Assembly (NCBI GenBank): GCA_963736855.1
Contig: CAVTQK010000009.1
Span: 1 to 64,000, forward strand
Direction of reading: 5' to 3'
DNA: 64,000 bases
Source: an uncultured delta proteobacterium
Lineage (GTDB): Bacteria; Desulfobacterota; Desulfobacteria; Desulfobacterales; UBA2156
Positions within the stretch are counted from its first letter, which is position 1. Each line of letters opens with the position of its first letter. A program made the position numbers and the translations under genes. The notes under the pieces were generated by a model. That model was not told the origin of the DNA. It was given only the letters and a program-made list of their open reading frames with translations, and ran no database searches. This document shows, piece by piece, positions 29,920 to 34,087 of the stretch.

Positions 29920-29953
29920 TCAGAAAATAGAGTCTGCATGATATATGTTAGGC
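29920..29953 (+). other. attI-like array entry site (R box GTTAGGC with no upstream attC hairpin)
   Basis: GTTAGGCAT at 29947 is the exact complement of ATGCCTAAC closing the first cassette; AT-rich non-coding leader. Confidence 0.6.
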
Positions 29954-29958
29954 ATTTT

Positions 29959-30702
29959 GTGAGCACACGCATCGACCATGAAAGCCTCGCCATTGGTGCG
30001 TGCTACGCGATTGCGCACGCTGTCAGTGTTCTCGAGGATGCCGCGATCCTGTATTCACAGAAGCGCGCCTCAAGCAGCTTCCACCTTGCTGTCATGGCTC
30101 GCGAAGAACTTGGACGCTTCAATCTTCTCGCGGAGCGGCATCACGGATTGCCCGCCAACGAGTGCGTTGATGCCACCGAGCTCGCGCGACACTTGCAACC
30201 TCACAAGATCAAGCTTCTGGCAGGCCAATCGGTTGTGCCCGTGCCTATGACACCCCAGGAACTAGTCGCGTGGAAAGCCGCAATCGAGCGAAATGATGAA
30301 GCGGCGAGTTCAACCATCTCACAACAGATTCGCGCGCGCGCCGTAAAGCTGAAGCCTCACCAAGCGGCGGCGTTGCACCAACATCGACTCAAGGCTCAAT
30401 ACGTTGACCTTGACCCACGAACTGGTCAGTGGTCCCGCCCCTCCGAAGTGTCGATGGCTGACGCGTCTACGCTCATCCGCACAGTCATGGCTGAGATTGC
30501 AAATGCACTTATTGCCGCTCAGGGTGCTGCGTGGCTTCACGCTGCATACGCTTCATCGGAGAACGCAGACCTGACATGGGCCCGTTCACGCATCGCATCT
30601 TTGCACGCCTGGGCGAAGGCGATGCCTAACAATCGTGTGGACACGGACGCAGGAAAGGCGCGCCGCTTCGCTCTGCACCTCACCTGCGCCGGTCACGCGT
30701 GA
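29959..30702 (+). CDS. AbiV-family (HEPN) abortive infection-like protein; natural stop may be TAA at 30629 if one base is missing
   Basis: LEDAAILY...FHLAVMAREELGR...HKIK...HRLKAQYVD...WSRP pattern; the ORF reads through the attC. Confidence 0.7.
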   Translation: MSTRIDHESLAIGACYAIAHAVSVLEDAAILYSQKRASSSFHLAVMAREELGRFNLLAERHHGLPANECVDATELARHLQPHKIKLLAGQSVVPVPMTPQELVAWKAAIERNDEAASSTISQQIRARAVKLKPHQAAALHQHRLKAQYVDLDPRTGQWSRPSEVSMADASTLIRTVMAEIANALIAAQGAAWLHAAYASSENADLTWARSRIASLHAWAKAMPNNRVDTDAGKARRFALHLTCAGHA

Positions 30703-30710
30703 CGTTCCCG
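30624..30710 (+). repeat. attC site
   Basis: GCCTAAC-AATCGTG-TGGACACGG-ACGCAGG...CCTGCG-CCGGTCAC-GCGTGAC-GTTCCCG. Confidence 0.85.
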
Positions 30711-30723
30711 GCGACTCCGTCGT

Positions 30724-30759
30724 CGGTAATCGCGGCGCTGACTTCGTCCGCGATTGGAC
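30724..30759 (+). repeat. Atypical 36-bp palindromic cassette junction
   Basis: AATCGCGG-CGCTGACTTCGT-CCGCGATT-GGAC. Confidence 0.6.
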
Positions 30760-30786
30760 CTCAAGACAAGCTACGAAAGGATCATC

Positions 30787-31650
30787 ATGACGCTCAGTTA
30801 TGTGAAGGCAGAGACAATCCGATTGCGCGAACTCGGCTTCGATGAGAAGTGGCTTCAGGATCGGATAAATGAGGACCCTTCCATCCTCGGCCTTGGCGAT
30901 CTGATCGTCATCACACGAGAACACACCCAACCAAGCGGAGGCCGTATCGACTTTCTAATGTACGACCCAGAAGACGGTATCCGATATGAGATCGAGGTCA
31001 TGTTGGGTCGGGTCGACGAGAGTCATATCATTCGCACCCTCGAATATTGGGACATCGAAAGAAAGAGGTTCCCGAGCCTCCAGCATCGAGCCGTGATCGT
31101 TGCGGAGGAAATCACCAACCGGTTCTTCAACATCATCTCCCTGCTCAACCAGGCGATTCCAATCCTCGCAATCCAGCTCAATGCCTTTAGGATCGACGAG
31201 AAGGTCGTCCTGCACTTCACTACCGTGCTCGATCTGCCAGAGCCGGAATCGGACGAGGAGGGAACCGCGGAGAAGGTTGATCGCGGATATTGGGAAAAGC
31301 GCTCCAATCCGACTTCCATGCGGATTGTGGACAGGATGATCGGGCTTGTCCCAACCACTGACGGTCCGGTTCGCACAACCTACAATAAGTACCACATCGC
31401 CGTTGGAACAACGGGGCAGAACTTCCTGTGGTTCCATCCCCGGAAGAGCGCCTCCCACTGCCATATGCACGTGCGGCTACTCGACGGCCAAGAGAGAACC
31501 GACACTCTTCAGAAGCTTGAAGATGCCGGAATCTATTCGGGGCCTCGTGGTCGCGAGGTCAAACTGCGCTTGTCTGAGAAAGAACTGAACGACAACGAGA
31601 AACTGATTAAGGACATGCTCGCGGCTTGCGAAAGGCAGTCGAGGGAATAA
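30787..31650 (+). CDS. NucS/PD-(D/E)XK-like nuclease domain protein with C-terminal DUF4268/DUF5655-like domain
   Basis: EKWLQ..I..DPSILG...RE.....GRIDFL...YEIEV...EYW. Confidence 0.65.
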   Translation: MTLSYVKAETIRLRELGFDEKWLQDRINEDPSILGLGDLIVITREHTQPSGGRIDFLMYDPEDGIRYEIEVMLGRVDESHIIRTLEYWDIERKRFPSLQHRAVIVAEEITNRFFNIISLLNQAIPILAIQLNAFRIDEKVVLHFTTVLDLPEPESDEEGTAEKVDRGYWEKRSNPTSMRIVDRMIGLVPTTDGPVRTTYNKYHIAVGTTGQNFLWFHPRKSASHCHMHVRLLDGQERTDTLQKLEDAGIYSGPRGREVKLRLSEKELNDNEKLIKDMLAACERQSRE

Positions 31651-31659
31651 CAGGTTGAG

Positions 31660-31699
31660 GTCCAACAGCCGCTGACTTCGTCCAGCGCCGCGATTGGGC
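31660..31699 (+). repeat. Atypical 40-bp palindromic cassette junction
   Basis: GTCCAAC-AGCCGCTG-ACTTCGTC-CAGCGCCGCG-ATTGGGC, 9 bp after the stop codon. Confidence 0.7.
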
Positions 31700-31718
31700 C
31701 TGCCTCTTAGAAAAGGGT

Positions 31719-31766
31719 TTGACTCCCCATCATCTATGGCTTATAATTGGGACCTAATTTAGGGTC
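31719..31766 (+). promoter_or_regulatory. sigma70 promoter and likely operator of the RHH-mazF cassette
   Basis: TTGACT-17 bp-TATAAT, followed by imperfect palindrome GACCTAATTTAGGGTC. Confidence 0.7.
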
Positions 31767-31795
31767 TTTATCTTAGACTATTTAAGGAGGTCCTC

Positions 31796-32029
31796 ATGAT
31801 TCAAGCCAAATTTAGCCTCAAGGAATCGCACATTCAATTTATTGAACAATGCAACCGGTATGGATTTAAGGATAAAAGCGACGTGGTGCGTACCGCCATC
31901 GACCGCTTGTTTACAGAATTAACCCGGCAGCGCTTGCGCGAGTCGGCTGCTTTGTACGCCGATGTTTATGAAGAAGATGATGAAACGCAAGAATGGACAG
32001 ATGCAGCGCTGTCAGAGTGGCCAACATGA
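31796..32029 (+). CDS. RHH/CopG-type antitoxin
   Basis: Short beta-helix-helix N-terminus (DKSDVVRTAI), acidic tail, ATGA-coupled to mazF. Confidence 0.75.
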   Translation: MIQAKFSLKESHIQFIEQCNRYGFKDKSDVVRTAIDRLFTELTRQRLRESAALYADVYEEDDETQEWTDAALSEWPT

Positions 32030-32382
32030 GCAAGCTAAAGCGGGGAATGGTCATCGACGTCAATCTTGATCCTACCAAGGGTTCGGAAACCGGGAAAATT
32101 CGGCCATGCGTGATTGTCACGAACAACACGTATAATGCGCGTGTCCCAGTCATCCAGGTGGTGCCATTAACGGCATGGAGTGAGAGAAAAGCCAGCATCA
32201 TCACTAATGTGGAAATTGTCCCATCCTCGCATAACGGGTTAACCAAAAAAACGGTGGCGGATTGCCTGCAGACCCGTCCTATTGATCACCGCGCTCGATT
32301 AGTCAAAGTACGAGGTAAACTGGAAGACGAGATCATGGCAAAAATTGACGATGCCTTAAAAATTGTTTTCGACCTCGCGTAG
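32026..32382 (+). CDS. mazF: MazF/PemK endoribonuclease toxin
   Basis: KRGMVIDVNLDPTKGSETGKIRPCVIVTNN...VVPLT...DCLQTRPID. Confidence 0.92.
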   Translation: MSKLKRGMVIDVNLDPTKGSETGKIRPCVIVTNNTYNARVPVIQVVPLTAWSERKASIITNVEIVPSSHNGLTKKTVADCLQTRPIDHRARLVKVRGKLEDEIMAKIDDALKIVFDLA

Positions 32383-32451
32383 GACTGAAACCAAAATCAA
32401 AACACAAGGGCATAGAAGGCAGGAAGATCCCAATCCGCATCTCATCGCTTG

Positions 32452-32519
32452 GCCCAACGAGTCGTTCCACCGGATCAGCGGGAAAGAGCGCCCGCCTCCC
32501 GGTGTACTCTGCGTTCGCC
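32452..32519 (+). repeat. attC site
   Basis: GCCCAAC-GAGTCGT-TCCACCGG...CCGGTGTA-CTCTGC-GTTCGCC. Confidence 0.85.
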
Positions 32520-32531
32520 GTAATAAAATAC

Positions 32532-32565
32532 TTGACATATGTTGTATTAAAGCTACAATATAACC
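32532..32565 (+). promoter_or_regulatory. sigma70 promoter with overlapping TTGTA-N7-TACAA operator; likely leaderless transcript
   Basis: TTGACA-16 bp-TACAAT-6 bp-ATG, no RBS. Confidence 0.65.
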
Positions 32566-32901
32566 ATGGGTGATTCCAAAATAGAACTTCTCGAATATTT
32601 AACCGAAGACGGAGAAAATCCCTTCCATAAATGGCTTAATTCACTAAAAGATCGATTCGCACGTGCGCGGATTCGAGTTCGGTTGAATCGTGTAAGACTT
32701 GGAAACTTTGGTGATTGCAAACCTGTTGGAAAAGGCGTGAATGAGTTGCGGGTGGATTATGGCCCCGGGTATCGGGTTTATTATGGAAAACCGGAGACGA
32801 CCATCGTGATTTTACTGTGCGGAGGTTCTAAAAAATCTCAGTCAAAAGATATTCAGATGGCTCAAGCATATTGGACCGATTTCCAAAGGAGAGCGAAATG
32901 A
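32566..32901 (+). CDS. RelE/ParE-superfamily addiction module killer protein (HigB-like)
   Basis: PFHKWL..LKD...RI..RL.RVRLGNFGD.KPVG.GV.ELRVDYGPGYRVYY. Confidence 0.92.
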   Translation: MGDSKIELLEYLTEDGENPFHKWLNSLKDRFARARIRVRLNRVRLGNFGDCKPVGKGVNELRVDYGPGYRVYYGKPETTIVILLCGGSKKSQSKDIQMAQAYWTDFQRRAK

Positions 32902-33197
32902 AAAAAGTAACTGAAAAATACGAAAATAATCTCAAAGAAGATCTTCTCGATCCTATTGAGGCCGCAGAATATTTAAATGCCGCATTGGAAGATGGTTCCC
33001 AGGAAGTGTTTTTAATGGCGTTAAAAGACGTTGCAAACGCAAAGGGAATTTCTGAAATAGCACGAGAAACGAAACTCAACCGTGAAAATCTTTATCGAAT
33101 TCTTTCAACGCAAGGCAATCCAAAATTAAAAAGTTTGAGTTCTGTTCTTCATAGTGTTGGGTTGAAACTGTCCGTTGAAGTAGAAAATCAGGTTTAA
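32898..33197 (+). CDS. Addiction module antidote protein (HTH, HigA-like)
   Basis: AAEYLNAALEDG...AL.DVA.AKG...LNRENLYR.LS..GNP. Confidence 0.92.
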   Translation: MKKVTEKYENNLKEDLLDPIEAAEYLNAALEDGSQEVFLMALKDVANAKGISEIARETKLNRENLYRILSTQGNPKLKSLSSVLHSVGLKLSVEVENQV

Positions 33198-33206
33198 GAA
33201 CTATTC

Positions 33207-33265
33207 GGCGAACATATCGCGTCAGCCGACCTCGTAAACTCGGCGGCTGACGCCGATTGTTCCGC
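33207..33265 (+). repeat. attC site (59 bp)
   Basis: GGCGAAC (exact complement of the preceding GTTCGCC)-GTCAGCCG...CGGCTGAC-GTTCCGC. Confidence 0.88.
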
Positions 33266-33320
33266 GTAGGAACTGACGAGAGGGTAGAATTCCGTTTTGA
33301 CAAATACGAGGAAGGAGCCA

Positions 33321-33767
33321 ATGGACATTCCTGAATACATATCCCAGGTAGAAGTCCAGCGGGTTTGCCGAGAGCTGGGAATCCGCGACTGGACTAGACT
33401 GACAGAGGCGCGTGTACCCTTGGAGGAAGCTGAGATCATCCAAGGAGAGATAGGTGGAGAGGCAACACTGATCTCGAGCGATGAGTTCCGGCAAGGACTA
33501 GAGGTAGAATTGGAGCACGGCTTGTTGTTTCCAGATGCGAATGTCACCAACAACCATCCGATTCTTACAGGCAGGATTGTGCTTGCCCACCTGAAAGAAA
33601 TGCTGGACTACTATGCACGTCTCGAAGTGGCGGAACTTGAGGGGGATCTCCTGAAAGCTGCACGAGCAGGAGACCTGGAAAAACTGGCACAGAAGTATCA
33701 GCAGCTACTCGTAGCCCGTGCGGAGCTATCGGTCCACGAGAGAGCTTCGGGCGTCAAGGCTGACTGA
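33321..33767 (+). CDS. DUF5661-like protein (last cassette gene)
   Basis: AAGGAG RBS; GLEVELEHG...IVLAHLKE..DYY.RL. Confidence 0.75.
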   Translation: MDIPEYISQVEVQRVCRELGIRDWTRLTEARVPLEEAEIIQGEIGGEATLISSDEFRQGLEVELEHGLLFPDANVTNNHPILTGRIVLAHLKEMLDYYARLEVAELEGDLLKAARAGDLEKLAQKYQQLLVARAELSVHERASGVKAD

Positions 33768-34087
33768 GGCCCGACCCTCCCCCGGTTTCGTGAGCAAGGG
33801 GTTGTCTCGCTTGGGGTGCGCAAACGACAGAATCATGACGATTGGCCGGCGTTCTTTGACTCAATGGCAGTCAATGGGCTTCCATACACGAGTATCCATG
33901 CCCTCTTCTGCTATCAAAAATTCAGATCCTGCCAGAGGTTTCTTGATTGGACCCGCCGGACCCCGACGATCCCGCTGACTACCGCAAGGGGGCCAAAATC
34001 GTCGGTTTTCACCGCAATAAAAAGAAAAAGCGCAAAAATGCGAAGTGATCATCTTTGCGCCCTGGTCATACGGTATGCCTAAAAATC

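Follow-up and report, generated by a model that had tools for sequence, protein, structure and literature searches.

The 64,000-nt stretch of DNA that was analysed (the window) carries an integron cassette array flanked by a FAD-oxidoreductase gene and a tRNA-Val. The cargo consists, in order, of HEPN_AbiV, a nuclease-like gene, mazEF, a RelE-type pair and a DUF5661 gene, and all parts of the array lie on the forward strand. The array begins at an AT-rich attI-like or secondary site (29940-29953; G|TT at 29947|29948), an end that it has in common with the contigs X1 and X2 discussed below. The HEPN_AbiV cassette (29948-30704; Pfam PF18728, E 2e-16; TIGR04498) is closed by a normal 87-bp attC found by the attC scan (30624-30710; G|TT at 30704|30705). 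Its reading frame (29938-30702) continues beyond the cassette's R'' and reaches a stop codon within the right arm of the attC, a sign of a possible frameshift close to the 3' end of the gene. The nuclease-like cassette extends from its TT start at 30754 to 31666, the last base of its R'' box (31659-31666), and the remainder of its own attC is gone. Its 287-aa ORF (30787-31650) has a weak NucS-like match (NF003270, E 6e-4, far under the cut-off) and a match to PADLOC PDC-S11 (E 8e-11). The mazEF-like toxin-antitoxin cassette (31694-32513; PF02452) ends in a normal attC with G|TT at 32513|32514. It is followed by a cassette with a RelE/ParE (HI1419-type) gene and an HI1420 antitoxin gene (32514-33259; TIGR02683 and TIGR02684, both above cut-off), closed by a normal attC that was recognized by its fold (from 33207; G|TT at 33259|33260). 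The last cassette (33260-33767) contains the DUF5661 ORF (33321-33767), identified by a profile match. No matching R'' or attC was seen after the DUF5661 stop within 33260-33800, and the end of the array falls about 360 bp short of tRNA-Val.

No intI gene is present in the window, and the four IntI matches above the family cut-off are all on other contigs of the genome. With several attC sites and no adjacent intI, the array resembles a CALIN, which Cury and colleagues reportedly defined in 2016 as an attC cluster lacking an integrase. One intI gene of this genome (G000:C13:157249-158180) is split by a frameshift and further array genes look frameshifted, which may be real decay or assembly error.

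An earlier note on this DNA had pointed to two related short sites that bracket the nuclease-like gene, 30724-30759 and 31660-31699, and had proposed that they act as cassette junctions. Both the letters and the coordinates were confirmed. The sites follow the cassette end rule, in that 30754-30764 is the exact reverse complement of 31655-31665, and the mazEF cassette closes with a complementary R'' at 32451, again as had been described. Their crossovers are A|TT, at 30753|30754 (site 1) and 31693|31694 (site 2), and these junctions are true cassette boundaries. Contigs from four public runs (X1-X4) were aligned to the region, of which X1, X3 and X4 cover pieces only; X1 and X3 also place the start of the mazEF cassette at 31694, behind a sequence ending in G, as it would be after an ordinary attC, so that this boundary is fixed independently. 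In the available text of PMC5027507 and PMC5371416, canonical attC sites span 57-141 bp and have R and L boxes, extrahelical bases and an unpaired central spacer. Sites 1 and 2 have the R''-to-R' end complementarity of such sites (an 11-nt match for the nuclease cassette, plus the mazEF match). They lack an L box stem with an extrahelical base on the R''-L'' arm, a length of about 56 bp or more, and a G at the crossover, where A stands at 30753 and 31693; site 1 also carries AAT, not AAC. Three distant homologs of the nuclease (46-48% identity, and hence different cassettes) were found in 3 of 400 genomes. As the earlier note had suggested checking, full-length attC-like sites, judged by eye, follow all three, whereas the nuclease here keeps only the outer attC box.

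A 22-nt motif (window 30728-30749) was used as a query to search related genomes. Species-representative genomes hold it at 46 loci, most of them in genomes with a Deltaproteobacteria or Desulfobacterota label, and metagenomes at no fewer than 123 loci, with 0 matches in viral contigs. The 169 loci among the matches listed gave 159 distinct contexts; a first sort placed 84 in the full class and 36 among those truncated at a contig end, with 16 short and 23 other contexts. Two loci (L014, L044) are in contigs of MAGs labelled archaea, where misbinning or cross-domain cassette transfer is possible. The 14-mer shared by sites 1 and 2 is found exactly twice in the 3.91-Mb genome, both times in the window and besides one longer truncated copy on contig C17, which disposes of the suggestion that it is an ordinary REP-like repeat.

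Most of these contexts hold a longer element, of which the full form reads, in order, G|TT, hairpin A, arm B, TTC, arm C, hairpin D, attC and A|TT. The attC of this parent element is in turn composed of AAC, a left arm, a variable hairpin, a right arm and A|TT. Arm B is the reverse complement of the attC right arm, arm C is approximately that of the left arm, and the loop between B and C is 3-4 nt. The element is common in bacteria resembling sulfate reducers from sediment and is usually about 155-165 nt long; full copies with both ends (n=73) range from 120 to 170 nt and are mostly 154-170 nt. Its forward attC has canonical anatomy and a median length of 96 bp. The body, about 65 nt long and built of stacked hairpins, varies in length by steps not divisible by three, so a coding function is unlikely. 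An Rfam search of 11 loci at E up to 0.1 returned two matches, neither credible for the element, and the full element had no match in plasmids. BLAST gave matches in 38 of 401 genomes of the class, of which the weakest may reflect generic attC likeness. When 401 genomes of the phylum were searched with the attC left arm, the 6 matches comprised 3 in the element and 3 in coding sequence, and no gene-bearing cassette with the parent attC was found in this way.

The surroundings of the element are those of a cassette. The base before hairpin A is G in 132 of the 140 contexts, among the matches listed, in which A could be delimited; an attI-like sequence precedes the element in 23 of the same 140, and IntI matches lie upstream on the opposite strand in 6 of the 169 loci listed. 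Full copies with both ends terminate in A|TT in 66 of 73 cases and then continue into 58 different 7-mers. The end rule was tested at loci with at least 900 nt downstream, for which 17 of the 27 collapsed loci described below were entered and 6 were long enough; the cassette after A|TT obeys it in 10 of 27 loci (permutation mean 0.76, maximum 5), the full copies accounting for 8 of 21. On its letters, the parent is an integron cassette, very probably gene-less, that carries a reversed copy of its own attC and is integrated at G|TT. Since it sits at both attI-like and attC G|TT sites, we infer that IntI integrated it. We also read the A|TT of the short sites as inherited from the parent cassette's own attC, given the A|TT end of the 66 full copies. 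The A|TT variant is not unique to the parent element, however, as ordinary attC sites with an A|TT end exist (G000:C9:669262 on the reverse strand, L021, L027 and L040). A looser attC scan of the genome, made with a crude scanner, gave 10 calls, 1 of them with an A|TT end.

The earlier note had also considered a small palindromic element that repeatedly replaces attC interiors and locks cassettes in place. The small palindromic element is real and locking or fusion is its likely effect; it does not invade attC interiors, and the palindrome is instead the body and right end of a cassette at ordinary G|TT sites (the 132 of 140 contexts above). A different origin would make the short sites attI-derived replacements of attC, or else traces left behind by a group II intron or an insertion sequence that targets attC. 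Replacement of attC by attI-derived sequence occurs in some class 1 cassettes, and the motif does directly follow attI-like sequence in the 23 contexts already mentioned. It sits, however, downstream of the attI crossover, as a cassette would, and is absent from the 1.8-kb AT-rich regions upstream of the genome's four intI genes, and the 11 loci searched gave no credible Rfam match. We regard such origins as hardly credible.

Alignment to the full element L030 (96% identity across 45 nt from its start) identifies site 1 as a collapsed gene-less cassette of 49 nt (30705-30753). It comprises hairpin A (30705-30727) and arm B (30728-30742), the reverse copy of the parent attC right arm, followed by the TTC loop, the first 4 nt of arm C and the last 4 nt of the parent attC, so that about 110 nt of the parent are missing; the same endpoint is found in L038, L047, L131 and L172. 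Site 1 is thus a junction, as had been claimed, but is not an attC that closes a gene. It forms the tail end of a gene-less unit, 49 nt in length, whose start is the G|TT at 30705. Site 2 (31667-31693) consists of 3 nt of the nuclease attC joined to the tail of a second collapsed element (31670-31693) with its A|TT end. This fusion of R'' and tail recurs in L226, and related fusions are present in L091, L032, L118 and L130.

In a refined sort, elements with at most 14 nt between GTCC and the crossover were classed as collapsed. Such forms make up 27 of the 159 contexts among the matches listed, with 11 different endpoints, and are spread over 14 hairpin-A variants plus 4 unassigned loci; two of the collapsed loci may be one context. 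The tail of site 2 is the commonest endpoint (9 of 27) and that of site 1 the second (4). Some collapsed copies retain subtype-specific letters of arm C (AGTGCC, AGCACC), and intermediate deletions were seen in L124, L177, L058, L091, L093, L101 and L183. L093 and L101 are cases of extreme collapse, with only about 24 nt from G|TT to A|TT. Searching 391 genomes of the order (this one and 390 others) for the collapsed pattern turned up 12 matches, made up of the 2 here, 8 collapsed copies in 7 other genomes, and 2 (L222, L223) that were discarded as chance; the reversed pattern gave 2 control matches. The commonest junction lies inside a direct repeat common to arm C and the attC right arm that flanks a large hairpin. 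As judged from these alignments, the short forms arise by internal deletion of the parent element, of about 160 nt, and not, as the earlier note had proposed, as a self-standing class of miniature non-canonical sites. A direct repeat on either side of a large hairpin is the geometry of replication slippage, which is the probable cause of the deletion. The 11 ragged endpoints and the intermediate deletions look like decay.

Several forms have the small loop inverted (L029, found on the reverse strand of the motif, L009 and L219). L029, with a 23-nt body, an attC of about 41 bp, canonical geometry and a GAA loop, is the best natural candidate for a truly minimal attC. An origin of the parent by reverse insertion of an L029-like sibling mini-cassette was considered and rejected, as hairpin D has the same orientation in L029 as in the full element. 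Hairpin-A loops read TNC on the top strand in 62 of 73 full copies, the same strand polarity as the TTC loop. From this common polarity and the orientation of hairpin D, L029 is better read as a derivative of the full element.

Contigs X1 and X2 have the array start of the window and then other cassettes. The X2 contig (5111 bp, depth 20) runs from the array start through 2363 other letters into window 30703-30735, in which 1 letter differs, and then directly into 31670 onward. A related strain therefore has before mazEF, and without the nuclease gene, the merged palindrome that the earlier note had obtained by joining the two sites; the same palindrome is present in other genomes (e.g. L033, L037 and L055), and it is real rather than hypothetical. 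Instead of an intact copy 2, X2 may represent the state of the window from which the nuclease unit was lost through a deletion between the 14-nt repeats, and more than one order of events is conceivable. Where site 1 meets the nuclease, and the nuclease meets site 2, the exact junctions are taken from this assembly, and neither is spanned by an aligned contig.

X2 also bears on whether the short forms could have been created artificially, by PCR, sequencing or assembly that failed at a strong hairpin. Full elements are predicted to fold at about -74 kcal/mol, 20 of the 159 contexts among the matches listed break off at a contig end within 25 nt of the motif, and this genome does contain frameshifts, including that of the intI on C13. 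X2, however, has other cassettes upstream and 19 differences over 1.8 kb, and shows the same short form at the mazEF junction. Moreover, collapsed copies are present in genomes assembled in 1 and 2 contigs, one of which also has a longer copy. We therefore consider an artefact very improbable, and the collapse of a longer attC in assembly, the possibility that had been raised beforehand, is most unlikely to account for these sites.

The design is not confined to one set of arms. Besides a truncated copy of the main family at C17:89002 on the reverse strand, this genome has three elements of the same design with unrelated arms, all on the reverse strand: G000:C6:2965, with G|TT, and G000:C9:682059 and G000:C16:7107, both with A|TT. 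The C6 and C16 elements follow AT-rich attI-like ends, and no IntI matches were found on those two contigs. On C17 the truncated copy stands alone as an insertion, next to a gene labelled by eye as cold-shock-like. In the C9 copy, hairpins A and D are close to those of the main-family locus L044 and the arms are different, yet B still matches its own right arm. An architecture scan of the genome and of the loci then collected gave 93 elements, 87 of the main family or its variants and 6 with other arms, the main-family count being biased by the motif query. In a reversed-genome control, the scan gave 2 matches, simple hairpins without G before TT, versus 3 in the real genome. Within a subfamily, B, C and both attC arms vary together. 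Tabulated as third base of AAY over crossover base, the 93 elements comprise 89 T/A, 3 C/G, 1 T/G and 0 C/A, with the main family having been selected for AAT, and the homologs L073 and L082 differ by exactly this pair. L070 is a tandem of two elements from different arm families, and L027 looks like their hybrid. Judged by the architecture of these copies, the self-antisense design is a class and not one sequence.

Folds were predicted with DNA energies for 90 of the 93 elements, 3 being not scorable. The isolated forward attC is predicted to pair arm to arm in 82 of 90. Within the whole element this fold is never the predicted winner (0 of 90), the outer B pairing prevailing in 88 of 90, so that the element is predicted to have two folds, with the reverse copy out-competing the attC fold. 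The first 4 nt of the element match perfectly with the bases before AAT in 69 of 73 copies and with those before AAC in 0 of 73 (3 of 4 in 63). This fits a reading in which the outer stem matters, though hairpin A alone would explain the match. The element evidently moves despite its disfavoured attC fold, and either kinetic or IntI-assisted folding would allow this or the outer stem would be the real site. We favour the inner attC as the working site, because the element is at G|TT sites almost everywhere, and the reverse copy would then be a brake or a by-product. In the available text of PMC2811028, IntI1 needs an identical first nucleotide in both partners, and both paired positions were changed there. 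The inner fold keeps a G opposite the crossover, which leaves a single T:G wobble with a G|TT partner, whereas the A:T of the outer fold would mismatch; a wobble at the first nucleotide thus differs from the double change described in that part of PMC2811028.

The principal competing reading is that the collapsed AAT...ATT hairpin is itself an IntI substrate, that units of about 50-55 nt are mobile, and that site 2 is a working 40-bp attC. The full element has the counterpart of such a site in its perfect outer B:B' stem, which hairpin A lengthens when the element is circular. The predicted dominance of this stem in 88 elements agrees with this reading, as does the joint change of the AAY third base and the crossover base, including that between L073 and L082. 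Mismatch correction between the paired arms can nevertheless yield such covariation, and could keep the copies matched without selection. An association of endpoint with subtype points the same way: the 4 collapsed copies of one hairpin-A variant are all ultra-short versus 3 of 23 others (Fisher p 0.002, in a post hoc comparison of kin that are not independent), and a collapsed lineage that kept moving could produce this. Site 2 is predicted to fold weakly with its R ends paired (-7.8 kcal/mol), but its unpaired base is on the wrong arm and its inner stem is only 5 bp. According to the text available from PMC2727003, loss of the extrahelical bases lowers attI integration only about 6-fold and hurts attC-attC excision far more, and the modest attI effect leaves room for residual activity of the collapsed forms. 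Against this, A at both paired positions mismatches all G|TT partners, a change for which the available part of PMC2811028 gives a 1,000- to 10,000-fold drop with IntI1. The 11 ragged endpoints and intermediate deletions resemble decay, and X2 keeps 6 nt that are missing from site 1, so that it did not arise from sites 1 and 2 by an A|TT crossover. On balance an active site of this kind is unlikely, and the more general proposition that collapsed sites still recombine in some way is possible but doubtful. In a wider version, the excised single strand would be a hairpin-capped double-stranded attC, a dumbbell that switches between locked and recombinogenic states; A|TT would keep G|TT partners from recombining with the outer stem. 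Collapsed units, at about 50 nt, would stay IntI substrates; no natural cassette would be smaller, and they would open a second channel for recombination. We hold this version to be improbable.

We think it probable that sites 1 and 2 are collapsed remnants of a self-antisense gene-less cassette, produced by deletion and followed by fusion. Under this explanation, IntI would use the ordinary bottom-strand attC fold of the parent, where the A at the crossover gives only a T:G wobble. Both attC arms are predicted to be tied up by pairing with the reverse copy, so that excision would be damped. With a reverse attC copy for a body, the element would have short direct repeats flanking a large stable hairpin, and slippage between these repeats would remove the interior and join B-TTC-GTCC to the last 4-11 nt of the attC. 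Two copies of the element would once have flanked the nuclease cassette, of which copy 1 was reduced to 49 nt. Copy 2 would have collapsed as well, and a further deletion through the shared arm sequence CGCTG(A), running from the nuclease attC into arm B, would have removed most of the nuclease attC together with hairpin A. The remnants keep the junction letters without the attC left arm and extrahelical base and are probably poor IntI substrates, and collapsed forms, which hold only an outer-type hairpin, should be weak substrates in general. The remnant, the nuclease gene and mazEF are now likely to be one fused cassette.

Cassettes fused by partial attC loss are on record in the available text of PMC8876359 (blaGES-1/aacA4, blaOXA-10/aadA1), with slippage at attC stem-loops given as the cause. 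As in those fusions, an attC interior is deleted here, the outer junction letters are retained and the neighbours are joined. The present case differs in that a whole gene-less cassette is deleted, recurrently in many genomes and with few preferred endpoints, and in that the crossover base is A. The accessible portions of 10.1101/2023.11.21.568050 and PMC8876359 describe ORF-less cassettes of Vibrionaceae, Treponema and Xanthomonas that act as promoters or RNAs. Like these, the parent is bounded by attC and placed among ordinary cassettes, and it very probably has no ORF; unlike them, it has a body in which two hairpins enclose a reverse-complement copy of its attC arms. The words 'inverted', 'palindrom' and 'hairpin' are absent from the text that was available of the Vibrionaceae preprint (10.1101/2023.11.21.568050). 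The forward site of the parent has the anatomy of a canonical attC, from which it departs by A|TT in place of G|TT, and the collapsed sites depart further in having no left arm and a length of 26-40 nt. In the mostly open-access main texts that were searched, neither a cassette bearing a reversed duplicate of its attC nor a family of attC sites with A|TT was described. Cassette fusion by attC loss and gene-less cassettes are thus already known, and it is the self-antisense design of the parent that looks undescribed.

The short sites would be decay products of a known type, yet they mark boundaries that attC searches based on length and fold would probably miss. The parent matters more than the short sites, as its sole cargo is a reverse attC copy that stays complementary across unrelated arms. 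It offers a natural test of competing folds in the control of excision and of the tolerance of a T:G wobble at the crossover, and possibly informs the origin of attC-only cassettes. Its collapse would be a recurrent route to the fusion of defence and toxin-antitoxin cassettes.
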